A stretch of 64,000 nucleotides of DNA, taken from the IMG/VR virus record IMGVR_UViG_3300018890_000001, positions 96,628-160,627 of that record; one strand, 5' to 3'. The notes beneath the pieces were generated by a model. It was not told the DNA's origin. It searched no databases and worked only from the letters and a program-made list of their open reading frames with translations. Position 1 is the first letter of the stretch, and every line of letters begins with the position of its first letter. Of the stretch, positions 2,481 to 38,208 are shown piece by piece. The translations under genes were made by a program, and so were the position numbers. The stretch comes from a virus.

Positions 2481-2690
2481 TTATGGGCGATCAAAAACAC
2501 GCTCTTCTTCTGGTGCGAACCGATCGCCCGCAGCACCAATACTTTCTCCGCCAAGTCCGATACGCAGCTCGTTATGAGTAATCGCGCCAATGCGGTACAG
2601 CGTATTCATTTTTACTAAATGAGCCATTTCCGCTTCACTTAATAACCGAGATTGCGAAAGCGATTGCAGTTTGTCAAATATTGATTTCAT
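2481..2690 (-). CDS. Small protein resembling the portal C-terminal segment
   Basis: LYRIGAITHNELRIGLGGESIGAAGDRF vs portal LFEKNLATRNEMRLATGLQPIGPAGDKF. Confidence 0.65.
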   Translation of the reverse strand: MKSIFDKLQSLSQSRLLSEAEMAHLVKMNTLYRIGAITHNELRIGLGGESIGAAGDRFAPEEERVFDRP

Positions 2691-2694
2691 ATTT

Positions 2695-3891
2695 TTAAGC
2701 AGGAATTACTTCTAAACTCGACTGTACCTCGAACAATGTCCACGGGTTGACTTCTATCTCGGAGAGCGGTTGCCCTGTGAACGAGTTTTTCAATTCAGTC
2801 TTCGGCACCGAATAAATACCTTCAGCTTTTTCGAGCTCACTGGCAAGCGTCTTATGAAATTCGAGATCTCCCCAAATCCCAAAAGGTGGATTGATCGCAT
2901 CGACGATCGTCTGGGCAACAAGGTTAAACCGCTGCTGCTGTGTCAAATCCCGCACAAAACCGACAGTTACTTTGCCGTCGATTGGAATGATTTCTGCCGC
3001 CCTGAATTCCAAAGGTTGTGATTCCATCGCCAGCGGGCGTGTTTTCTCTTCAACGACAGCGACCTGCTGTTCAGGCCAAACGGCAACGGTCACTAAATCG
3101 GTCCAGTGTCCGACAGTTCCGTACTGAGATGAGAGCACCAAAGTTTTCTTGCTACCAAATTCTTGAGCAGCCAAGTAGTAATCTTCTTTATTGACGACGC
3201 GCCCGATTTGGGCGGAAGTAAGATTTGGTGCATTACCGCGTCGGAATCTGTTGCGCGCTCTGATCATCATGTCGATTAGCGTTTCGCGATCGCGCCCTTC
3301 AGAAACAGCAGTTCCATCGTTCGCGACTCCAGATACGTTTGCCAGTAGTCTGGGTAAAACAGAAAACTCACCGGGGATTAAACCAGGGAGTGTACCAAGT
3401 CGGTTGATCCTGGCCGGTACAACTTTGAACTCGTCCGATCCGAATATGCGATCTTCTTTAATCGTGTAAGCGGCCAACGTGTTGTCACGAGAACTCCGCA
3501 CTTCCATGTTGTAAGGAATATCGACCGCGAGTCCAGATCGCATCGCATCAGTCGATCGCCGAAACACTAAATTAATTACTGGATATTCGGCTAACTGCCG
3601 CTCTACGCCAAGCATCCGAAACATCTGCACCCACTCCCAGTCGGGTTTTAGATTCAGTTCATATGCCAGATACTGCATCTGGGCGATCGTTGCCGACGCC
3701 AATATAACGTGCCCTGCTCCGGGTGCCATTGAAGAAAACGGAGAAGGTTCGCCACTGGGTAGTGGTTGTGCCAGTTGGTTTACGTAATTTGCGAGTTGCT
3801 GACTTGGATCGTAATCCCAAAGCTTGTCCGCTTCAATTAAATTCGCTTCAGATTCGAGGCGACGCATTAACTCGAAGTGTTCATCGTACAT
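2695..3891 (-). CDS. Baseplate J/gp47-like protein
   Basis: 398 aa; V.N.....GRDRETL...R.R and VV..EDY..AA motifs typical of baseplate J. Confidence 0.75.
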   Translation of the reverse strand: MYDEHFELMRRLESEANLIEADKLWDYDPSQQLANYVNQLAQPLPSGEPSPFSSMAPGAGHVILASATIAQMQYLAYELNLKPDWEWVQMFRMLGVERQLAEYPVINLVFRRSTDAMRSGLAVDIPYNMEVRSSRDNTLAAYTIKEDRIFGSDEFKVVPARINRLGTLPGLIPGEFSVLPRLLANVSGVANDGTAVSEGRDRETLIDMMIRARNRFRRGNAPNLTSAQIGRVVNKEDYYLAAQEFGSKKTLVLSSQYGTVGHWTDLVTVAVWPEQQVAVVEEKTRPLAMESQPLEFRAAEIIPIDGKVTVGFVRDLTQQQRFNLVAQTIVDAINPPFGIWGDLEFHKTLASELEKAEGIYSVPKTELKNSFTGQPLSEIEVNPWTLFEVQSSLEVIPA

Positions 3892-4142
3892 AATATATAG
3901 TTGAGGTTGTTAATGCCTATGGGTATTAAAAGTCGTATAGGAAGTCCACAAAGAAACCGCAAGCAATTACGAACAGCACAAAGTAGGGCCAGCCACCAGT
4001 CGTCGTACTCCTCCTTGTATTTAATTAGGCAAATATCGTCGCACCCAAAATACTTGGAGAGTACCAGGTTTCCCCAAACAACAACCAGGATGTTGTAGGC
4101 GATTAGCACTGAGAGTCTGTGTGCGACAACAAAATTAGACAT
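3867..4142 (-). CDS. Small membrane protein (GTAG-leader cassette)
   Basis: Two hydrophobic segments; GTAGTC leader. Confidence 0.55.
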   Translation of the reverse strand: MSNFVVAHRLSVLIAYNILVVVWGNLVLSKYFGCDDICLIKYKEEYDDWWLALLCAVRNCLRFLCGLPIRLLIPIGINNLNYILCTMNTSS

Positions 4143-4575: not shown

Positions 4576-5646
4576 TCAGAACGGTAGTACCGCATCCAAC
4601 GCCCACGGGGGTGCCATTTCCGACAACCACAGTTCCGTCTTACCAAGTTGTTCTTCCCACCAGACGATCGCCCGCTCAGTTTTCTCCATCGCCCACGCGG
4701 GCACTGTAACCGAAGCTTCTTTCTCAACTTTGACGCGCTCTGCCGGCGGTACTTTCATAGATCTTCTAACCATCGTTGCCAGTGGAATCGTCGCCACAAT
4801 CTTTTCGACCAGCAATGCCAAACCACCTGAGACGATAATTTCTGGTTCTACAAGATCGAAGGTTTCAGTAGCTAGGATTTCTTCGGGTGGGCGATCGGGT
4901 TGTTCTTCTTGGAGTTTCTCGAAAGCTTGCTCTGCCTGCAACATTTTATAGTTGGTGTTGACGATTTGAACTACATCCGGCAGCGGGCGATCGGCGATCG
5001 GTTCAGTGCGACGACCCCAGCGAGCAATGCCCTTAAACACCATGTTGAACAGTGCGACTAGCGTGTACGCCTTATGCTCTGGGAGGGATTTCGATTCGTC
5101 GCGTACTGTCGGGTAGTTCCCGTTTCCAATTTCTTTCGACCAGTCCAAACGCATTTCTTCGAGGCTGTAGTGTTCCAGCAAGATTAATTCACAGCGCTCT
5201 GCCAGAATTAACGCAGCTACAGCATCAAAATTAGTCATCACGTTGGGCTGCTTATTGCGATTCTTGGGGATTTTGCGGGATTCGTGGCGATCTTCGAGAT
5301 TGTAGAGCTTGAAGGTTTCGCTCAGATCGTGTCGCACCTTGTCAACAGTACCCTTTGCTGTATGACAATAACCTTCCCAGTGCGCAGACAGGTACGTCAT
5401 GATACCTTCCATCTTTACCGGAACCGCCAAGGGCTGCACCAGATCGTTGATATTTTTCTGGTCGTAGTCCCGCAATCCCTTGCTACCATGCTTGCCGCTG
5501 ATTACTTTTACCTGGCGACCGGCTACATACAAGGCATGATTGAGGATTCCAAAAATTGTGAAAATCTTTGTAATGCTTTTCCCGTTTAGCTTTGCGTCGA
5601 ATTCTTGGGAAAGAGCATTGATCTCTTGCTCGGTTCTTGCTATCAT
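4576..5646 (-). CDS. Putative replication-initiator-like protein, paralog 1
   Basis: Aligns with 34812..35846 throughout, including Trp-rich C-terminus ending ...PWALDAVLPF; origin-like element upstream; function inferred. Confidence 0.55.
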   Translation of the reverse strand: MIARTEQEINALSQEFDAKLNGKSITKIFTIFGILNHALYVAGRQVKVISGKHGSKGLRDYDQKNINDLVQPLAVPVKMEGIMTYLSAHWEGYCHTAKGTVDKVRHDLSETFKLYNLEDRHESRKIPKNRNKQPNVMTNFDAVAALILAERCELILLEHYSLEEMRLDWSKEIGNGNYPTVRDESKSLPEHKAYTLVALFNMVFKGIARWGRRTEPIADRPLPDVVQIVNTNYKMLQAEQAFEKLQEEQPDRPPEEILATETFDLVEPEIIVSGGLALLVEKIVATIPLATMVRRSMKVPPAERVKVEKEASVTVPAWAMEKTERAIVWWEEQLGKTELWLSEMAPPWALDAVLPF

Positions 5647-5652
5647 GTTGTT

Positions 5653-5711
5653 AATTAAATGAATATTACTTGGACTGCCCGATACCTTTAACGAGGTCGG
5701 GCTATTTTTTT
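5653..5711 (+). ncRNA. Antisense (countertranscript) RNA over the 5' UTR of Rep-like paralog 1
   Basis: Extended -10 TGCTATCAT (5638-5646) overlaps the start codon; GCCCGA..TCGGGC hairpin + T7; same layout at paralog 2. Confidence 0.6.
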
Positions 5712-5825
5712 GAGCGTATCCTGAAAACCTGCGGTAGTTGTCTACCTGTATATAGGGTACACCAGGGTTTAAATTGATGCAATTAGGTATAAATACGTAT
5801 TTAACGATTTTGCGTCGTTTCAGCG

Positions 5826-5951
5826 ATTGACCACTTAAACATCTTCAATCCGTTTTGGATTTTCTTTATTTCTTACTCTTTTGTTTTTGGACAAAATTTT
5901 AACAAAGAAGAAAAACACCTTTGCAAGCTTAAGGATGTTTAAGTGGTCAAT
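5826..5951. repeat. 18-bp perfect inverted repeat enclosing a 90-bp AT-rich core (origin-like element A)
   Basis: ATTGACCACTTAAACATC (5826-5843) / GATGTTTAAGTGGTCAAT (5934-5951). Confidence 0.85.
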
Positions 5952-6072
5952 TTGGTTTTAAGCGAACCCAACAGCATTAAAACGGACACAGCTTTAGGTT
6001 GCGGACTCTACAGTTTGGGATGGGCGGGCGATCGATTGTTATCATAAAACCACTGTCACCGGAAAATTAACA

Positions 6073-27486: not shown

Positions 27487-27537
27487 AAAAAAACCGTACT
27501 CTCAGGAAAGCGCGGTTGGACTAGATAGAAACCTGTC
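27487..27537 (-). ncRNA. Small RNA (~50 nt)
   Basis: TGCTATTCT -10, ~25-nt free 5' end, hairpin + T7; resembles unit 34071-34129. Confidence 0.55.
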
Positions 27538-30957: not shown

Positions 30958-32748
30958 ATGTACAAATTAAGAGATTACCAACAGGAATTAGAGGATGAGA
31001 TTTTTAAACTGTGGGCGATCGGTACTCGCTGTATCATGGTTCAATTGCCGACAGGTGGGGGCAAAACTAAGACGTTCGGTAGTATTACACACAAACAATT
31101 AGACATTGGTTGGCGTGTTTTAGTAATTGCCCACAGAGAGGAATTGATATTCCAAGCCAAGAAAGAAATTGAAGAAGCGTCTGGTCATTCGGCAGGAATT
31201 ATTAAAAGTGGGCACACACCTAGTCCGCTATTCGCGCTACAAGTGGCCTCGATTCAGACCTTGACCAAATACAAAACCATGCCGCCATTCGATCTGATAA
31301 TTATCGACGAGGCACACCACGCCTGTAGTCGCAGTTACACGCGAGTGATGGAGCAGTACCCAAATGCAAAAATCCTGGGCTTTACAGCAACACCGTGTCG
31401 CAACGACGGTCAGGGTTTTAAGTATTTGTTCGAGAAATTGATCTGCGGACCAACGACACGAGAGTTAATTGAGCGCGGACATCTATGCCCGTATACGCTG
31501 TTTGAAGCAGGAAAAACGGTCGATACAAGCAAGGTTAAGAAAAACGGTGAGGGTGACTTTAATACCAAGCAGTTAAGTGAAACCGTTGCAAATCAAATCG
31601 AACCCGACGACGTAGTTCGCGAATGGCTGGATAAGGCGAAGGATAAGCAAACAGTAGTGTTTGCGGTAGATGTTGAAAGAAGCAAGGAATACGCTGAAGC
31701 ATTTTGCAGGGCGGGGATTCCTGCGGAACACTTAGATGGAGAAACAGAAAAAGACGATCGCCGAGAAATCTTAAAACGCTTTGCACTAGGTGAAACACTC
31801 ATCCTTTGCAACTGTGGGATTATTTCGGAAGGTGTCGATATTCCTGGTATTGTCGCAGCCCTGATTGTACGTCCGACAGGAAGCTTGAGCCTATGGCGAC
31901 AAATGGCGGGTCGCGTATTACGAAATGCCAAAGGTAAAACGACTGCGATTATTGTCGATTTCTCACAAGCGCGCGCCAGGAAAAGATTGGGTCTTCCCGA
32001 TGACGACGTACCTTGGTCGTTAGAGCCGCAGAGCTTAGACGAACTTGGGAAAGCCTTTTTTGCGGTCACCTGTAAATGCAATCACGTCTTCAGACCGCTG
32101 CCGCACGAGATACCTAAATTGGTTTGCAAATGCCCAAACTGTTTGAAAGAAAATACCTTCAAAATGGGTAATGGTGACAGTGAAAAAGAGATGGAACCGA
32201 AAGAGGTTTTGGTTGCCGGTAGCGACAAAGATAAGGCGATCGACCTCACCGTCAATCCAGAACATCAAAAAATTATCGACGAACTTTTTGAAGTCGCCGA
32301 TCGCCAGGGGCATCCAAAACCAAAAGACTATGCGTACCACAAGCTCATGGAAAAAGCTAGAGCTGAAGACTGGCTGACTGAAATTTCGATGGGTACGTGG
32401 CGTTACCTGGCTAAGCAATTGGGGCACACTACGAAATGGGCAACCAAAAAATACGAAGAAATTGAAGAAGAAAATCGGGAATTGACGCCAATTGAACTCG
32501 ATCGCCTGTGGAAGAAAGCTTTGGAAGAAGTCAGACCTTACGGAACGCAAGCATTGCTCAAGCAGCACAGTCGTCTTGTACACTATCAAAAAAGCAGAGC
32601 GTGTGTAGAGATTACGTCAATGCCGTTGCTGAAAATGGTAAGTCAGAAAAAGGAAAACGTTAAACGCGCACTGCACGGTGTTGGTAGTTTCGCAGCAGTG
32701 GTGGAGCTGAAAGTTAAAGAAAGAACCGAGCAGGCGATCGAACCATGA
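30958..32748 (+). CDS. SF2 DEAH-box helicase with Zn finger and C-terminal DnaX-like domain
   Basis: LPTGGGKT, IIDEAHH, TATP, EGVDIP, QMAGRVLR; CKC..CPNC. Confidence 0.9.
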   Translation: MYKLRDYQQELEDEIFKLWAIGTRCIMVQLPTGGGKTKTFGSITHKQLDIGWRVLVIAHREELIFQAKKEIEEASGHSAGIIKSGHTPSPLFALQVASIQTLTKYKTMPPFDLIIIDEAHHACSRSYTRVMEQYPNAKILGFTATPCRNDGQGFKYLFEKLICGPTTRELIERGHLCPYTLFEAGKTVDTSKVKKNGEGDFNTKQLSETVANQIEPDDVVREWLDKAKDKQTVVFAVDVERSKEYAEAFCRAGIPAEHLDGETEKDDRREILKRFALGETLILCNCGIISEGVDIPGIVAALIVRPTGSLSLWRQMAGRVLRNAKGKTTAIIVDFSQARARKRLGLPDDDVPWSLEPQSLDELGKAFFAVTCKCNHVFRPLPHEIPKLVCKCPNCLKENTFKMGNGDSEKEMEPKEVLVAGSDKDKAIDLTVNPEHQKIIDELFEVADRQGHPKPKDYAYHKLMEKARAEDWLTEISMGTWRYLAKQLGHTTKWATKKYEEIEEENRELTPIELDRLWKKALEEVRPYGTQALLKQHSRLVHYQKSRACVEITSMPLLKMVSQKKENVKRALHGVGSFAAVVELKVKERTEQAIEP

Positions 32749-33011
32749 AAAACGTATTAGCTTATCGAGAGCGGAAGGTTGGCACCAGACAGGTTAAAGT
32801 CGTTGAATTTTTTAGGGGCGATCGAATCCCACCCACACGTTGTAGCGACTGTACTTATTAGACTAAATTTCTTAGGGATAGAGCCAACCAACTTGTCTGT
32901 GTGGTAAATATACCGCGTCCCGATCACAAAAGGACGCAGATCTATATATTAGATGTGCGTCCTTTCTTATTGTACGGTTTAGACTATTGCGCTTTGGTTA
33001 ACAAAACTTAC

Positions 33012-33302
33012 TTAGTACCAATCAGCGCCGCTAAATTGATTTAGTCGAGATTGGGTCGGAATATAAAATGTAGACCACTCCAGATCAAGGGAACCACTCT
33101 CTATCGAAGAAAAAGAAGGATGGGCGATCATAATGTTGATAAAATGATCGTCCTGATCAGTAAGCTGAATGTGACAACCTGCCTTGAGCAACCCCCAGCA
33201 AATTGCAAGTTGTTGCTGTGCTTCCGGTGTATCACGGTTCTTCCATTTTGCAAATGATACAATGCTGTGCTCACACAGTTCAATCAATTGTTGATGAATC
33301 AT
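33012..33302 (-). CDS. Hypothetical phage protein
   Basis: GTAGTC leader. Confidence 0.8.
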   Translation of the reverse strand: MIHQQLIELCEHSIVSFAKWKNRDTPEAQQQLAICWGLLKAGCHIQLTDQDDHFINIMIAHPSFSSIESGSLDLEWSTFYIPTQSRLNQFSGADWY

Positions 33303-33401
33303 TTTATATAAAAAGAAAGACTACACTTACAGTATAGCTTACCGTAAACCTATTGAAAAGAAAATTGAACGTGCAACTTATGTTGATAACACGCTAAGAA
33401 A

Positions 33402-33695
33402 TCATAAAAGATTTTGCAAAAAATTTGCCATCTGTTTGTACTTAAAGTCTTGCATAACCTCTGTTATTTTTTCGGACAAGTCATACAAAACATTATCATC
33501 CTGGGGGGCGTCTCCATTTAAGTTGAATATTTCATTTTCGTATTCAATCAATGCTGCCAACTTTGAATCTAGTATAACAATTTCAGAACAATCCAGATCA
33601 AATTGATTATGAGTCCCGTTTTTTATGATTTGTTTAGTCTGATTAGCAGGGTCTAACGGAAGATACACAAACTTACCTTTAAATTCATTGTCCAC
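33402..33695 (-). CDS. Hypothetical protein
   Basis: GAGG SD before GTG. Confidence 0.65.
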   Translation of the reverse strand: MDNEFKGKFVYLPLDPANQTKQIIKNGTHNQFDLDCSEIVILDSKLAALIEYENEIFNLNGDAPQDDNVLYDLSEKITEVMQDFKYKQMANFLQNLL

Positions 33696-33764
33696 GATAA
33701 CATCCTCAACTAATTACTTAACTATAGATTTTATCTTAAAATACGATACGATCGCCCACCACCT

Positions 33765-33937
33765 AATACTCCAGTCCGTTCCAATACTCCAGTCCGCTCC
33801 ACACCCAAAAACAACCGTCGTCACTAAATCGCTCGGTATATTAAAGACGTTTTTTGTCTTTCAAAAAAGATTTAAAATAAAAATTTTAACAAAGAAAAGA
33901 AAGGCTTTTTAGATTTAAGGCGATTTAGTGACGACGG
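33765..33937. repeat. Origin-like element B: two 14-bp direct repeats plus an 18-bp inverted repeat around an 87-bp AT-rich core
   Basis: AATACTCCAGTCCG x2 (33765, 33783); CCGTCGTCACTAAATCGC (33815-33832) / GCGATTTAGTGACGACGG (33920-33937). Confidence 0.85.
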
Positions 33938-33965
33938 GCGATCATCGCCTTCTTTGTTTCTAGGT

Positions 33966-34014
33966 AAGAAAAAATCGCACTCGTAGCGTGGTGCGATTGG
34001 TTGGCTTGACGCAA
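33966..34014 (-). ncRNA. sRNA array unit 1
   Basis: TGCTAGAAT -10; stem AATCGCAC/GTGCGATT + T-run. Confidence 0.65.
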
Positions 34015-34070
34015 GGTTTTATTCTAGCAAATTTTATTGCGGGCGATCGCCCGTTGCTCCGAAAAATCTC

Positions 34071-34129
34071 AAAAAATAGCTGCACTCTACTAAAGTACAG
34101 CTCGGTCTAATTCTAACACCTGTTGTTTG
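34071..34129 (-). ncRNA. sRNA array unit 2
   Basis: TGGTAAAAT -10; stem with minus-strand G:U pairs + T6. Confidence 0.65.
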
Positions 34130-34154
34130 ATAGTTATTTTACCAAAATTTAAGC

Positions 34155-34204
34155 AAGAAAAAGCGCACTTGTAGTGATGTGCGCTTGTTGGCATTTCATG
34201 GTGT
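34155..34204 (-). ncRNA. sRNA array unit 3 (paralog of unit 1)
   Basis: TACAAT -10; stem AAGCGCAC/GTGCGCTT, compensatory change vs unit 1. Confidence 0.65.
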
Positions 34205-34254
34205 ACCCCAATTGTACTGAATTTTTGGAGTGATGGGCTTATTCCCGTGTACTA

Positions 34255-34464
34255 TCAGTCGTCATCGGTAGTGTGCGTGGAATTATCTTGATGTGGTGCT
34301 GTGCGAACTTCCGACAGGAAATCGAAGTGTACCCGTGAGATATGTTTTAACGCTTCGGTCTGTATTGGCGGTATTGTGTCTGGGACTGGTAATTCTGTCA
34401 TTCGTACTAGCAACGGATTTCCATCAGGATCAAACATCGGTGAGTATAGATTGCGTGGATTCAT
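34255..34464 (-). CDS. Small hypothetical protein
   Basis: AAGGAG SD. Confidence 0.65.
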   Translation of the reverse strand: MNPRNLYSPMFDPDGNPLLVRMTELPVPDTIPPIQTEALKHISRVHFDFLSEVRTAPHQDNSTHTTDDD

Positions 34465-34493
34465 ATGAACTCCTTTTTCTGTAGTAGGTTTTT

Positions 34494-34545
34494 AAAAAAA
34501 TCGCGCCCGGTCAACTAGGCGCAATTGGATTGATTAGCTTGTTCC
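34494..34545 (-). ncRNA. sRNA array unit 4
   Basis: TGATACAAT -10; G:U-containing stem + T7. Confidence 0.65.
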
Positions 34546-34747
34546 GATCTGATTGTATCAGAAATGAGTTAAGGGTGTCCCTCGCAACGCTCAAGTTTCA
34601 CAAAAAGACCGCCCACACATTTATATAGATGTGTGGGCGGTCTTTTTGTGTCCGATCACCCGTCCTCTGCATTCCGAAAACAATTCACCACTTTTGGCAA
34701 CGTCGCGCTAGAATAAGTCCATCCCAGGTTCTTATGTGGATCTACGA

Positions 34748-34808
34748 CAAAAAAAATTAGCCGAACCTGTTTCAGAGGTGCGGCTAAGTCGGAGTAAGTA
34801 TTTTTATT
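34748..34808 (-). ncRNA. Antisense RNA over the 5' UTR of Rep-like paralog 2
   Basis: TGTTAGCAT -10 at the start of the ORF; TAGCCG..CGGCTA hairpin + T-run; homologous to 5653-5711. Confidence 0.6.
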
Positions 34809-34811
34809 AAC

Positions 34812-35846
34812 ATGATGCTAACACAGATTTACGTCGATCGCCTACTTTCCGAATTTAATTCCGAACTTTTGGACCTGAACAACACTCAGATCCTTACGAT
34901 ACAAGGGATTCTGAACGGTTACTTATATTGTGCGGCGCTCAATGATGACAGGCTTTGGCGATCGCCCGACGGGAAGATACACTTCAAATCTTCCGATATC
35001 GCCCAGTTTTTCAGAACAGACCGCACGGTGATTGCTCCGGTGAAGTGGCTCAGCGACTACCTTCAAGCTTACTGGAAGGGGCTGGTATTCGATTCGCGAG
35101 ATAGCGTCGCTAAATATAGAAAGCTTTTATCTACAAAATTCAAGCTATTCACGCTCGAAGAGCGGTCGCAGGCTTGGAAAGATGATCCACTGAATCGGCA
35201 TAGACAGCCAAACCCTTGTGGCGAATTCAATATGCTGCGCGCGATTCTGCTGGCGCGAGCTTGCGAAGAACATCTGCTTTGTTATGGGATGGAACTAGAG
35301 GCTTTGCAGTTAAATATGGATGTCGTGTGCGAGGGTCGCTACGAATTTGATCGCATCGAAGAGATCTCGTTCCCGAAACACAAAGCATACCTTCTGGCAA
35401 TGATTGGTAAAGCTTGCGGACTCTGGACTGATAGCGAACAAACGCACCCAGACCTCGAAGCAATTATCGAACTTGAAGGATTGCGGATGCGGGCGGAAAA
35501 ACAGTTTGATGATATAGACCCTGACGATCGCACAGAAGAACAAGTTTTAGAAGATGAGTGGTTGGTTGTTACCGAAGTCGAACCAGTCACCATCAGTGGA
35601 ATCACAACGATTGTCGAGCGCGCGGTTGATGCAATTCCTTTGGGGATTCTTGTCAGGCGATCGATGTCAGTACCGTTTGTTCCGCGACCACTATTTGATT
35701 CAGAAGGTGCAATAAAACTTCCAGTTTGGGCGATTGAGTCCGGTCGTCAGGCAGTTCGGTGGTGGCAGCGGGCGATCGATAGGGCAGGTGTGTGGTTGCA
35801 GAATCTCGCACCAGAATGGGTTCTCGACGAAATAATACCTTTTTAA
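34812..35846 (+). CDS. Putative replication-initiator-like protein, paralog 2
   Basis: Paralog of 4576..5646; ends 4 bp upstream of the DNA polymerase gene. Confidence 0.55.
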   Translation: MMLTQIYVDRLLSEFNSELLDLNNTQILTIQGILNGYLYCAALNDDRLWRSPDGKIHFKSSDIAQFFRTDRTVIAPVKWLSDYLQAYWKGLVFDSRDSVAKYRKLLSTKFKLFTLEERSQAWKDDPLNRHRQPNPCGEFNMLRAILLARACEEHLLCYGMELEALQLNMDVVCEGRYEFDRIEEISFPKHKAYLLAMIGKACGLWTDSEQTHPDLEAIIELEGLRMRAEKQFDDIDPDDRTEEQVLEDEWLVVTEVEPVTISGITTIVERAVDAIPLGILVRRSMSVPFVPRPLFDSEGAIKLPVWAIESGRQAVRWWQRAIDRAGVWLQNLAPEWVLDEIIPF

Positions 35847-35850
35847 AAAT

Positions 35851-38208
35851 ATGACACTCGCGCAATTTGCTAAGAAACGCATCCAACAGAAAAACTGGAA
35901 TAGTACCGATATCTTTGAGATGCCACTCGAAGACGGGAAAATAAGTCGCGTCAAATGGGTCGATCGCCCGCTCAAGAAACCGAAAGGTAATCTGTTTAAA
36001 TTGCGCGCTCCTCTAGGCGATCGATTTTTTGAAGTGGTTGAAATAGTAGAGCGACGACGATCGCCCACGATGCCGGAATTCCAGTTACCGGATTTTGAGG
36101 CGATCGATTTCAACGTCCCGATTTTTATGCTTGAACCGGGACAGCCTGACTATCAAGATCACCTCCAACAGATTTTAGTGGCAGATCTATTGGTGGTCGA
36201 TCTTGAGACTTTTACTCCAGACCTTGCGCTCAATAAAAATAATGGGTTGCATCCCCGTGACGGGCGCATCCGACTAATTCAATTATTTGACGGCAAGACT
36301 GTTTGGATTGCGGATCTCAGGGGTCGCGATATGAATGCGATGCCGCTGTTCTCGCACCTTCCTTCAGAACGCGATGCTCAACACAAGCGGTTGCAAGAAT
36401 TTTTTGAAGTGCTGGGCGATCGATTAGCGTCTGAAGATTGTCTTATCGTCGGACACAACTTACATTTCGATCTGCGGTTTTTGCAGTTTCAGTTGGGACT
36501 CAGGGCTAAGAATGTTAGCTGTACGCAACTCGGTTCTCAGGTCTACTTTGGCGATTACAGTGGTGACAGTTCTGTCAAAAAAAGTGGCGACCCCATTTTA
36601 AAAGGTGGTTACGGTCTGGCGAATTTGTGCCATCGTTTTTTTGGAACAGCTCTCGATAAGACTGAGCAGACTTCAGACTGGGGCTTGTCGGAACTGTCGA
36701 AGTCGCAGATCCACTACGCCGCCAAAGATGTTATCGCGACCTACCACCTGCATCAGGGGCTGATTGATTTATATCAAGACTTACACTCTGCGCTTTATTC
36801 GCCACAATTGCTGGAATCCTGGGAGGTCGAAAACGGATGTTTGCCTGTTACCGTGGCGATCGAATATTGTGGGATGCCTTTCGATAAAGCCCTGGCACAG
36901 CAACAGGTTGAACAGATATCGAAAATTCATAGTGATTTACTAACTGAGTGGAAAAAAATTTCACCAACGGTTATGTATACCCAGGACGCCGAATTTGGAA
37001 GATTGCTAGCAAGCGAGTACGACATTGATCTTTCAAAAGAAGAGAATGGTAAAGTTGTTACCAAAGTAGATAAATCGAGTCTTGCATCCTATTTGCATAT
37101 ACCGATCGTCCGATTGCGAGGTGAGCTTGTTGCTCTCGACGGACTGTTGAATAATTTGCAGGGGTTTTTACGGTCTGCGGAACAAGATGCGCGAGTGCAT
37201 ACGACGTACAGAACGCTTACTGGCTTTGGGCGTTTTAGTTCTGGTGAGTCTAAGTATTTCGATAATCTACCTAATCTGCAATCGGTTTCCTCAAAGCAGA
37301 ATCCGCTGATCAAAAAATACAATTTACCCAATCCGCGCAGCACGATCAAGCCCCCGCTCGGTTACACGATGGCGGTAATCGACTTGGCTGGTGCTCACGG
37401 ACGAATTGCGGCAGACCAAGCTGAAGATGAAGCGGCGATCGCCGGAAACAACGATTCCAAAATTGACAACCACAGCAAAGTTGCCGTGTTCGTTGCCAAA
37501 TGCCAACAACAAGATTGGACTTGGGAAGATATAGCGAAACTCAGTAAGCAAAAAGACGAATATGGCAACCTTACTGAGATTGGTGCCAGGGCAAAAGCGT
37601 TTCGTGACACCGCCAAAAACACGTATTATGGTTGGCTTAACGGTGCCGGTGCAAAGCGGGTACAGCTACAAATTGCTGCAAACGAAGGATTTACCCCTGA
37701 ACTTGAAACCTGCGAAGCTGCTATTGAAGGTTGTAAGCAACTTTATCCGGCGGTGCTCAAGCATCGGGAAGCGTTGCATAAGCGGCTTGTTCGGGATGCG
37801 GTATTGGTTGACGGGCGACCGATCGCCATTAATATTTCAAGCGACGGTTTTCGCGTATTGTTACCACTGGTCAAGAAGTTTAACAAATTTAAGAATACTG
37901 AGGAGTGGGAAGCACCATATACGCAGTCGCTGGCGGCACTCTGGACTAGGATCGAGGCGACGGCAATCAAGCGAGCTCTGATTAAAATTCAAGTCTTGAT
38001 TGATGAAAATCCGCAGTGGGCTTTGCAGATCATCGGTATTGTCCACGATGAAGTCGATTTGTTAGTTAAAACCGAATTTGAGGAAATCGCGATTTCAACC
38101 GTGAATGATATTGTGGGCGATGAATTTAAAGCGCAGTTGAAGCGCGTAACTGATGGTCGTAAAGCTAGTTGGACAGAATTAAAAGCAGGCTCGTGGGCTG
38201 AAAAATAA
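35851..38208 (+). CDS. polA: Family A DNA polymerase with 3'-5' exonuclease
   Basis: Exo DLET, GHNLHFD, YAAKD; GRFSS..PNLQ; motif B R..AK..YYG; motif C VHDE. Confidence 0.92.
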   Translation: MTLAQFAKKRIQQKNWNSTDIFEMPLEDGKISRVKWVDRPLKKPKGNLFKLRAPLGDRFFEVVEIVERRRSPTMPEFQLPDFEAIDFNVPIFMLEPGQPDYQDHLQQILVADLLVVDLETFTPDLALNKNNGLHPRDGRIRLIQLFDGKTVWIADLRGRDMNAMPLFSHLPSERDAQHKRLQEFFEVLGDRLASEDCLIVGHNLHFDLRFLQFQLGLRAKNVSCTQLGSQVYFGDYSGDSSVKKSGDPILKGGYGLANLCHRFFGTALDKTEQTSDWGLSELSKSQIHYAAKDVIATYHLHQGLIDLYQDLHSALYSPQLLESWEVENGCLPVTVAIEYCGMPFDKALAQQQVEQISKIHSDLLTEWKKISPTVMYTQDAEFGRLLASEYDIDLSKEENGKVVTKVDKSSLASYLHIPIVRLRGELVALDGLLNNLQGFLRSAEQDARVHTTYRTLTGFGRFSSGESKYFDNLPNLQSVSSKQNPLIKKYNLPNPRSTIKPPLGYTMAVIDLAGAHGRIAADQAEDEAAIAGNNDSKIDNHSKVAVFVAKCQQQDWTWEDIAKLSKQKDEYGNLTEIGARAKAFRDTAKNTYYGWLNGAGAKRVQLQIAANEGFTPELETCEAAIEGCKQLYPAVLKHREALHKRLVRDAVLVDGRPIAINISSDGFRVLLPLVKKFNKFKNTEEWEAPYTQSLAALWTRIEATAIKRALIKIQVLIDENPQWALQIIGIVHDEVDLLVKTEFEEIAISTVNDIVGDEFKAQLKRVTDGRKASWTELKAGSWAEK

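Follow-up and report, generated by a model that had tools for sequence, protein, structure and literature searches.

An array of four candidate small non-coding RNA units beside an origin-like element in a putative cyanophage genome

Described RNA arrays and cassettes closest to the locus

The tandem NsiR1 array of heterocystous cyanobacteria, the promoter-early stem-loop (PeSL) cassettes of T4-type phages and the RNA anti-CRISPRs (Racr) are the described systems with which we compare a row of four putative small RNA (sRNA) units, U1 to U4. The units lie on the minus strand between positions 34560 and 33969 of a 64,000-nucleotide stretch of viral DNA (the window), which corresponds to bases 96628-160627 of the 199,763-bp IMG/VR record IMGVR_UViG_3300018890_000001. 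In each unit, a -10 box is followed by an unpaired stretch of about 20 nt and then by a hairpin with a U-run. In architecture, the array is closest to NsiR1 and to clusters of sibling sRNAs, in genomic behaviour it is closest to PeSL cassettes, and in concept it is closest to Racr RNAs. To our knowledge, small RNAs encoded by cyanophages are almost unexplored.

The NsiR1 array was described by Ionescu et al. (2010) and is summarised in PMC6596454. NsiR1 and the phage locus are both rows of very small non-coding RNA genes, putative in the phage, in a cyanobacterial setting, whereas the NsiR1 copies are near-identical direct repeats, reside on the host chromosome and are under NtcA/HetR control. 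The phage units, in contrast, are heterologous except for the 3' halves of U1 and U3, are phage-borne, have constitutive-looking -10 boxes and have no match in Rfam. Each NsiR1 repeat is its own transcription unit of roughly 60 nt. Short transcripts defined by a promoter and an intrinsic terminator, such as the lambda 6S RNA (pR'-tR'), and clusters of sibling sRNAs, such as OmrA/B, PrrF1/2 and LhrC1-4, are further known examples. The phage units resemble them in having a promoter-like box with a nearby terminator and, in the adjacent and paralogous U1 and U3, different 5' ends; they differ from them in having no sequence match to them and no identified antiterminator, target or shared seed. 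In type III toxin-antitoxin systems, the ToxI-like RNA comprises identical repeats of about 36 nt in tandem, and a toxin gene lies downstream of them, whereas the phage locus has no tandem repeats and is followed by an inverted repeat and iteron element, not by a gene.

PeSL cassettes (Arbiol et al. 2010, PMC2839356) are a dispersed multicopy motif of about 100 bp, found at many intergenic sites and ending in a Shine-Dalgarno (SD) sequence and a start codon. The phage locus shares with them the pairing of a sigma70-type promoter with a terminator stem-loop and the location in a hyperplastic region where small open reading frames (ORFs) come and go. Furthermore, U4 followed by orf69, a 69-aa ORF, resembles a PeSL with its cargo. 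Racr RNAs and viral solitary repeat units are defined by their likeness to host CRISPR repeats (Camara-Wilpert et al. 2023, PMC10651486). The phage units are like Racr RNAs in being candidate small phage non-coding RNAs with a promoter-like box immediately upstream and a hairpin body, located in non-coding accessory DNA, and the Racr-type combination of a directly upstream promoter and no cas genes nearby is present here. They differ in that no CRISPR-repeat-like match was found in the cyanobacterial genomes sampled, which may not be those of the host, and in that the hairpins of the units end in U-runs.

Anatomy and conservation of the four units

Relatives of the locus were found via a neighbouring 344-aa protein, on contigs from uncultured or metagenomic phages. 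This protein has relatives at 85, 76, 67 and 66% amino acid identity and about 20 more near 50%. The non-coding region at 33749-34227 is 72-83% identical at the nucleotide level in four lineages, and U4 is 86% identical. In a segment-wise alignment of three lineages, 130 of the 179 columns in the predicted transcribed segments are invariant (73%), compared with 59 of the 141 ungapped spacer columns (42%), and all 91 indel columns lie in spacers. When the transcribed segments and the -10 boxes are taken together (145 of 209 columns invariant), the difference from the ungapped spacer columns has a Fisher p value of 3e-7, or of 1e-20 with indel columns counted; the promoter part of U2 is slightly misaligned in this count and was aligned properly in a separate U2 alignment. 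The conservation of boxes, transcribed segments, stems and loops, with diverging spacers, supports the reading of an earlier note on this DNA, made from the window alone, that each unit is separate and has a promoter-like box and a terminator of its own, and indicates that selection has kept the units as such. The comparative data alone delimit the four candidate genes to within a few bases and point to the 5' 10-13 nt, the loops and the stems as the nucleotides under selection.

The same note had named remnant terminators of deleted ORFs as an alternative, taken here in the wider sense of decaying, leftover promoters and terminators now without function. The comings and goings of orf69 show that ORFs are gained and lost here, but with conservation concentrated in the unit bodies and all indels in diverged spacers, and with an ORF-less state common to all lineages that have U1-U3, we regard this explanation as extremely unlikely. 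There is no ORF in U1-U3 in any lineage, and a coding reading of U3 was rejected, since the frame that starts at its ATG is not the same in the window as in the relatives L003 and L008.

All four units are present in the sequence with the positions and boxes first reported for them, including the TG extension in three of the four boxes. In U1, the extended -10 box TGCTAGAAT (34029-34021, minus strand, as for all unit features) is TGCTA(G/A)AAT in four of four lineages and has a conserved block containing HIP1 about 20 nt upstream. The predicted RNA of about 46 nt (34014-33969) begins with the invariant 5' segment CTTGCGTCAAGCC, in which a 4-bp mini-hairpin is possible, and continues with a hairpin of 8 bp (33998-33973), whose 10-nt loop contains CGCTAC, and a run of six U residues to 33969. 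In U3, the -10 sequence AGTACAAT, with TACAAT at 34216-34211, has no TG extension, and the box reads TACAAT, TACAAT and TAGAAT in three lineages; the predicted RNA of about 47 nt (34204-34158) has the invariant 5' segment GTACACCATG, an 8-bp hairpin (34184-34163) with a 10-nt loop containing CTACAA, and five U residues. U4 has the extended -10 box TGATACAAT (34560-34552), and a -10-like box at equal spacing to the conserved 5' segment reads TAAACT in L003, TACAAT in the relative L004 and TACAGT in L008. Its predicted RNA of about 52 nt (34545-34494) consists of the invariant 5' segment GAACAAGCTAATC, a 10-bp hairpin (34526-34499) with the invariant loop GTTGACC, and seven U residues.

U2 has two candidate boxes. 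The distal box TGGTAAAAT (34144-34136), with the TAAAAT assigned to U2 in the earlier note, is present and corresponds to TGCTAAAAT in L003 and CGCTAAACT in L008, but it lies at 9 to 20 nt from the proximal box, depending on the lineage, and only 1 of the 20 columns in the arm downstream of TAAAAT is conserved. The -10 of U2 that is kept in relatives is instead the proximal extended box TGTTAGAAT (34118-34110), which is aligned as GTTAGAAT, GTTATAAT and GTTAGAAT across the lineages, with one base varying; its hexamer at 34115-34110 is TAGAAT or TATAAT. The U2 hairpin (34102-34078, within the segment 34103-34070) has 11 bp followed by an A and six U residues, and an RNA started at the proximal box would be little more than this hairpin.

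The 5' segments of U1, U3 and U4 are invariant in three to four lineages, are the best-conserved parts of the units and begin at about the expected transcription start. The reported variability of the 5' ends is thus found between units but not between phages, and the proposed design of a variable seed on a conserved scaffold does not describe the array, since only U1 and U3 share a scaffold. Their common pattern, GCCAAC...CGCAC...CTAC.AGTGCG...T-run, was confirmed together with its compensatory pair: the 3' halves are paralogous, with one U-A to G-C double change. The hairpins of U2 and U4 are unrelated to this scaffold. A CC(A/G)A motif previously placed at the base of the stems fits loosely, and an AAGCYAAYC-like motif is the clearer single-stranded element common to U1, U3 and U4. 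The suggested likeness of U2 to a distant site at 27487 amounts to 13 of 20 positions with a gap, a level reached by about 1,160 sites in the genome and hence by chance.

Pairing is kept where stem sequences change. In the U1/U3 stems, both partners are changed in two pairs and there are three G-U substitutions. In the U4 stem, one G-C pair is replaced by A-U, and three further changes, each on one side only, keep pairing. In U2, an alignment of the window, L003 and L008 by eye shows the 11-bp stem kept with several pairs changed on both sides and a conserved core GTAC...GTGC. As these are few events in three or four lineages, the covariation is supportive and not proof. The loops are also kept, namely GTTGACC in U4 and the 10-nt loop with CTAC(G/A)(A/G) in U1 and U3. 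The repeats might alternatively serve as DNA, with ATCGCAC-N10-GTGCGAT (U1, U3) and the U4 repeat being operators for a dimeric protein such as the 344-aa protein. Nearly invariant stem sequences, a double change in U3 that keeps the half-sites symmetric, the conservation of the loops as spacers and a putative DNA-binding protein encoded alongside would suit such operators. However, the T-runs after the repeats are all confined to one strand, and the -10 boxes before them stand at a fixed distance. Where DNA symmetry is broken (U1 in L008 and several U4 positions), the RNA stem is kept by G-U pairs, and pairing in U2 is kept with little sequence identity; we therefore consider operators very unlikely.

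On the single genome, the units stand out by the clustering of their boxes and not by their folding. Fold z-scores of the single sequence are unremarkable (-1.2 to -2.4), and a consensus terminator scan reported only U2 and U4, missing U1 and U3 because its loop limit is 8 nt. The extended box TGnTAnAAT occurs 44 times in the 199.8-kb genome, compared with about 40 times in shuffled sequences, and 5 of the 44 are on the minus strand within the 670 nt of 33891-34560, where about 0.07 are expected. A TAnAAT lies 5-50 nt upstream of 31 of the 277 terminator-like hairpins of the genome, including U1, U3 and U4, in which the distance from the -10 box to the stem is 24, 26 and 27 nt, respectively. 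The stems of the units are weak, at -7 to -12 kcal/mol (U1 and U3, -7 to -8.5), compared with -15 to -30 kcal/mol for usual terminators of this genome. Conserved loops on stems weaker than those of usual terminators therefore suggest a role beyond termination. A repeat search of the locus detected no direct-repeat family across the units.

The units belong to no known RNA family. Rfam 15, in a search proposed by the earlier note, gave no match in the 64-kb window at the gathering threshold, and a permissive scan of 33000-35500 gave sub-threshold hits of microRNA or small nucleolar RNA type on the palindrome and the inverted repeat flanking the array and, among U1-U4, on U2 only (mir-290, 17 bits). 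A covariance model, R1, was built from eight U1/U3-type copies and scores these at 67-79 bits, as expected by construction. Searches of the genome with R1 and with motifs found no copy of the unit sequences beyond this locus. Pattern scans for the U1 motif in IMG/VR and metagenomes gave mostly chance coding matches, and the L004 and L008 lineages were the only ones recovered again.

A variable slot and the possible roles of the units

Between U4 and U3 lies orf69 (34464-34255, minus strand; ribosome-binding site AAGGAG), which has no match in Pfam. No separate promoter was found between the U-run of U4 and the ribosome-binding site of orf69, and since no other promoter precedes this ORF, U4 may serve as its leader and attenuator as well. 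With orf69 in this position, the array is not made up of non-coding DNA alone.

orf69 is present in the window and in L004, where the copy is truncated by a TnpB insertion, and is absent in L003 and L008, in which U4 directly abuts U3 so that the four units form an unbroken row. L004 has U4, the truncated orf69, two TnpB insertions and U1, along with two more units of the same build and unrelated sequence (about 3985-3900 and 3872-3782). L008 has one extra unit upstream of U4 (about 3432-3362), and the relative L006 has a single U1/U3-type unit adjoining the inverted repeat. Such extra units, alike in build and different in sequence, indicate that units are gained and lost as modules. In the relatives with about 50% protein identity, L025, L026/L029 and L028, the 344-aa gene, a hairpin in its leader (U6, described below) and the inverted-repeat/AT-rich element are kept, and the array is absent. 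Judged from these sequences, the interval is a hypervariable slot in which the units behave like small cargo.

Other elements have entered the same slot. In L004, two IS605-type TnpB (OrfB) genes at 587-1798 and 2537-3541 truncate the orf69 homologue and unit 2. In L006, a 900-nt ORF-free insert (3123-4022, minus strand) matches the Rfam group II intron family RF00029 at 3198-3274 with 58.7 bits and probably represents a group II intron without an ORF, or what is left of one; Rfam searches of the relatives' loci gave only the group II intron domain and a tRNA elsewhere.

This variability bears on the possibility that the units are PeSL-like regulatory cassettes, which would insulate and drive neighbouring cargo, gate it by promoter-proximal termination, in the manner of lambda pR'-tR' with its 6S RNA, and offer sites for the insertion or loss of small genes, the short RNAs being by-products. 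The presence or absence of orf69 exactly between U4 and U3 fits such cassettes, as does the occurrence of TnpB genes, pentapeptide or leucine-rich repeat genes and a group II intron remnant in the same interval of relatives. U4 followed by a ribosome-binding site and ATG corresponds to PeSLs of the subclass that has its stem-loop downstream of the -10 box (PMC2839356). Furthermore, most genes of this phage are built as cassettes of a terminator, a TGATAAAAT-type promoter, a leader and an ATG. However, the units are single-copy and mutually different, whereas PeSLs form a multicopy repeat family in which each member has an SD sequence and a start codon; here, only U4 is followed by both, at orf69 of the window and of L004. 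The other three units, U1, U2 and U3, are free of cargo, with no ORF downstream of them in any of the lineages, and are nevertheless conserved over their whole transcribed length, loops included. Recombination between cassettes would leave one cassette rather than a row of four. We consider this explanation, the leading alternative, rather unlikely. If the units are only promoter and terminator cassettes, the PeSL idea would extend from T4-type coliphages to an unrelated group of cyanophages.

The reading that we favour, with confidence and doubt about evenly balanced, is that the locus is an array of genuine small non-coding RNA genes acting via their 5' ends and loops, with U4 being also the leader and attenuator of orf69. 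The selected 5' strand, stem and loop form the pattern expected of RNAs that pair with targets or are recognised by proteins. We infer transcription, termination, action in trans and any target, as follows. The host-type -10 promoters, three of the four extended, would probably be read by the RNA polymerase of the cyanobacterial host early in infection, and each unit would give a transcript of 33-52 nt ending at its own hairpin and U-run. The transcripts would most likely work as RNAs through the conserved single-stranded 5' ends and hairpin loops, and could pair with a host transcript or bind and titrate a protein. Read-through of the U4 terminator would be the only visible route to expression of orf69 in the window phage and one relative.

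We put forward more tentatively, as possible but doubtful, that the array is a battery particular to this lineage, made up of four to six different RNAs of 33-55 nt, each with its own promoter, which act in trans during infection via their invariant 5' ends and conserved hairpin loops. Their targets would be transcripts of the host or one of its RNA-binding or defence proteins, and they may be called 'RNA morons'. If so, phages would accrete RNA morons as they do protein morons. RNAs acting in trans would represent a new type of accessory cargo in phage genome plasticity and an undescribed class of cyanophage effector.

Several results weigh against the favoured reading of small RNA genes. Complements of the three conserved 5' segments and of three loops occur in the 199.8-kb phage genome at the frequency of shuffled controls; no complementary site stands out there, and guide or antisense action on the phage itself is thus not supported. 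Duplex energies are ordinary against the rep-like leader, orf69, the origin-like element and a paralogous module elsewhere in the window; the one exception, U2 against the upstream minus-strand region (z -2.6), is distrusted, since long loops are permitted in this calculation. In the sampled cyanobacterial genomes, the U1 13-mer is about as frequent as its control, and the matches of the U4 13-mer GAACAAGCTAATC lie in scattered, unrelated and partly orthologous coding contexts. The latter 13-mer occurs about 100 times, compared with about 40 times for its reversed control (about 2.5-fold), in 121 cyanobacterial genomes of the family of a Kamptonema metagenome-assembled genome (MAG), an excess that is consistent with codon usage and shared ancestry and is not evidence of a target. 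The conservation comes from only three or four independent lineages, in which symmetric changes would equally keep a DNA palindrome, and the array is dispensable, as it is missing from the relatives with about 50% protein identity. In addition, promoter and terminator cassettes can be conserved for regulation alone, as PeSLs are (PMC2839356).

The host-side genomes were chosen around the Kamptonema MAG, which holds a related phage contig and may not represent the host of this phage; the host-side negatives are therefore weak. A blastn search with 33740-34600 against 301 genomes of the MAG's order, which bears on the CRISPR-repeat mimicry suggested in the earlier note and on mimicry of host RNAs, gave chance-level short matches, mostly HIP1 or AT-rich, no homologue and no multicopy repeat pattern, short CRISPR-type repeats being hard to detect by blastn. 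R1 had no match in 141 genomes of the MAG's family.

The adjoining origin-like element, the 344-aa gene and the genome setting

Directly downstream of U1 lies an origin-like element (33765-33937), composed of an inverted repeat (33815-33937) with 60-nt arms GTCACTAAATCG and an AT-rich core of about 90 nt, and of 18-nt direct repeats at 33765-33800, of which there are two in the window and three in L003. Every relative, with or without the array, has the element next to its member of the 344-aa gene family. The element is a probable replication origin; GC skew gave no origin signal.

Transcription linked to an origin has precedents in T7 phi1.1A/B, T4 oriF/oriG, ColE1 RNA II and pAMbeta1. The promoters of the array could in the same way fire toward the inverted repeat, AT-rich core and iterons, and supply a primer RNA, an R-loop or control of initiation. 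All units point at the element, U1 ends 30 nt from its arm, and the single U1/U3-type unit of L006 is in the same place. The locus also lies between a helicase gene and the 344-aa gene with PolA, and the N-terminal half of the 344-aa protein is winged-helix-like, although with a modest Z of 6-6.8. A paralogue of this protein, 32% identical and encoded at 4576-5646 (minus strand), has its own element with different arms (5820-6030), and the arrangement is mirrored in this module: a promoter-like TATATA and, after it, the GGGTACACCA also found in U3 point into its inverted repeat. Nevertheless, neither the array nor a clear inward promoter is present in the relatives with about 50% protein identity, although these have the 344-aa gene, its leader hairpin and the element, and every unit terminates before the element. 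The unit RNAs have no outstanding complementarity to it, and the element is itself unproven as an origin. We consider origin-linked transcription improbable as the role of the array. An ssoA-like reading, based on the plus-strand loop TAGCGT of U1, which corresponds to the CS-6 hexamer, was dropped, since all T-runs and -10 boxes accord with the minus strand.

The 344-aa gene (34812-35846, plus strand) belongs to no known family; its product has no Pfam match, and Foldseek against the PDB gave nothing at E <= 0.001. In an AlphaFold model (pLDDT 80), residues of about 13-180 align to DNA-binding domains of winged-helix type (CRP/FNR, PadR, MarR and the winged helix of Cdc6/Orc) with Z of 5-6.8, and the winged-helix-like character of the N-terminal half is suggestive only, the best Z of 6.8 being modest and within the chance range. 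The sequence GCTAGAATAA (34707-34716, plus strand), which repeats the U1 promoter box on the opposite strand and has TAGAAT or TACAAT in relatives, is likely the promoter of this gene, which would then have a leader of about 90 nt.

Antisense to this leader, about 25 nt from the ATG, lies U6, a hairpin with a T-run (34749-34800, minus strand; hairpin and T-run at 34787-34749). U6 is found in every relative (L003 4975-4939, L004 4980-4943, L006 4970-4933, L008 4973-4937, L025 about 5985-5950 and L028 about 5975-5935) and has a counterpart in the paralogous module (window 5672-5706, plus strand). Its stem sequence differs between copies with pairing kept, and its fold z-score is -3.9. By analogy with plasmid copy control, U6 is a candidate countertranscript terminator or leader structure. 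The upstream bound of the array is a near-perfect palindrome of 52 bp (34599-34650) with GACCGCCCACACAT arms, an A-run and a T-run, located between divergent promoters. This palindrome is conserved, and two copies of it bracket inserted genes in L006 (3127-3176 and 4797-4843) and in L008 (4393-4438 and 4689-4748). Termination in both directions and recombination are possible functions.

The array thus described occupies a stretch of 1.1 kb that is almost free of genes. On one flank is a ResIII/DEAD helicase gene (30958-32748, plus strand), followed by two small minus-strand ORFs, and on the other are the 344-aa gene and the PolA gene (35851-38208, plus strand). Along the minus strand, the order is U6, the 52-bp palindrome, U4, orf69, U3, U2, U1, the AT-rich inverted repeat and the two 18-nt direct repeats. 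The source record, classed as a virus, has a GC content of 44%. The HIP1 octamer GCGATCGC occurs in 61 copies, compared with about two expected; this marks the record as a cyanophage or, failing that, as DNA with a long residence in cyanobacteria. No close relative of the record was found in the phage and plasmid nucleotide collections searched, IMG/VR scans seeded with proteins gave nothing, and PolA is only 23% identical to the PolA of the Nodularia phages. A scan for tRNA and transfer-messenger RNA genes detected none. The terminator-like hairpins, about 277 genome-wide, stand at almost every gene boundary, and many are perfect bidirectional palindromes with HIP1-like GATCG cores. The genes at 39.4-41.9 kb follow a strict cassette order of terminator, TGATAAAAT, leader and ATG.

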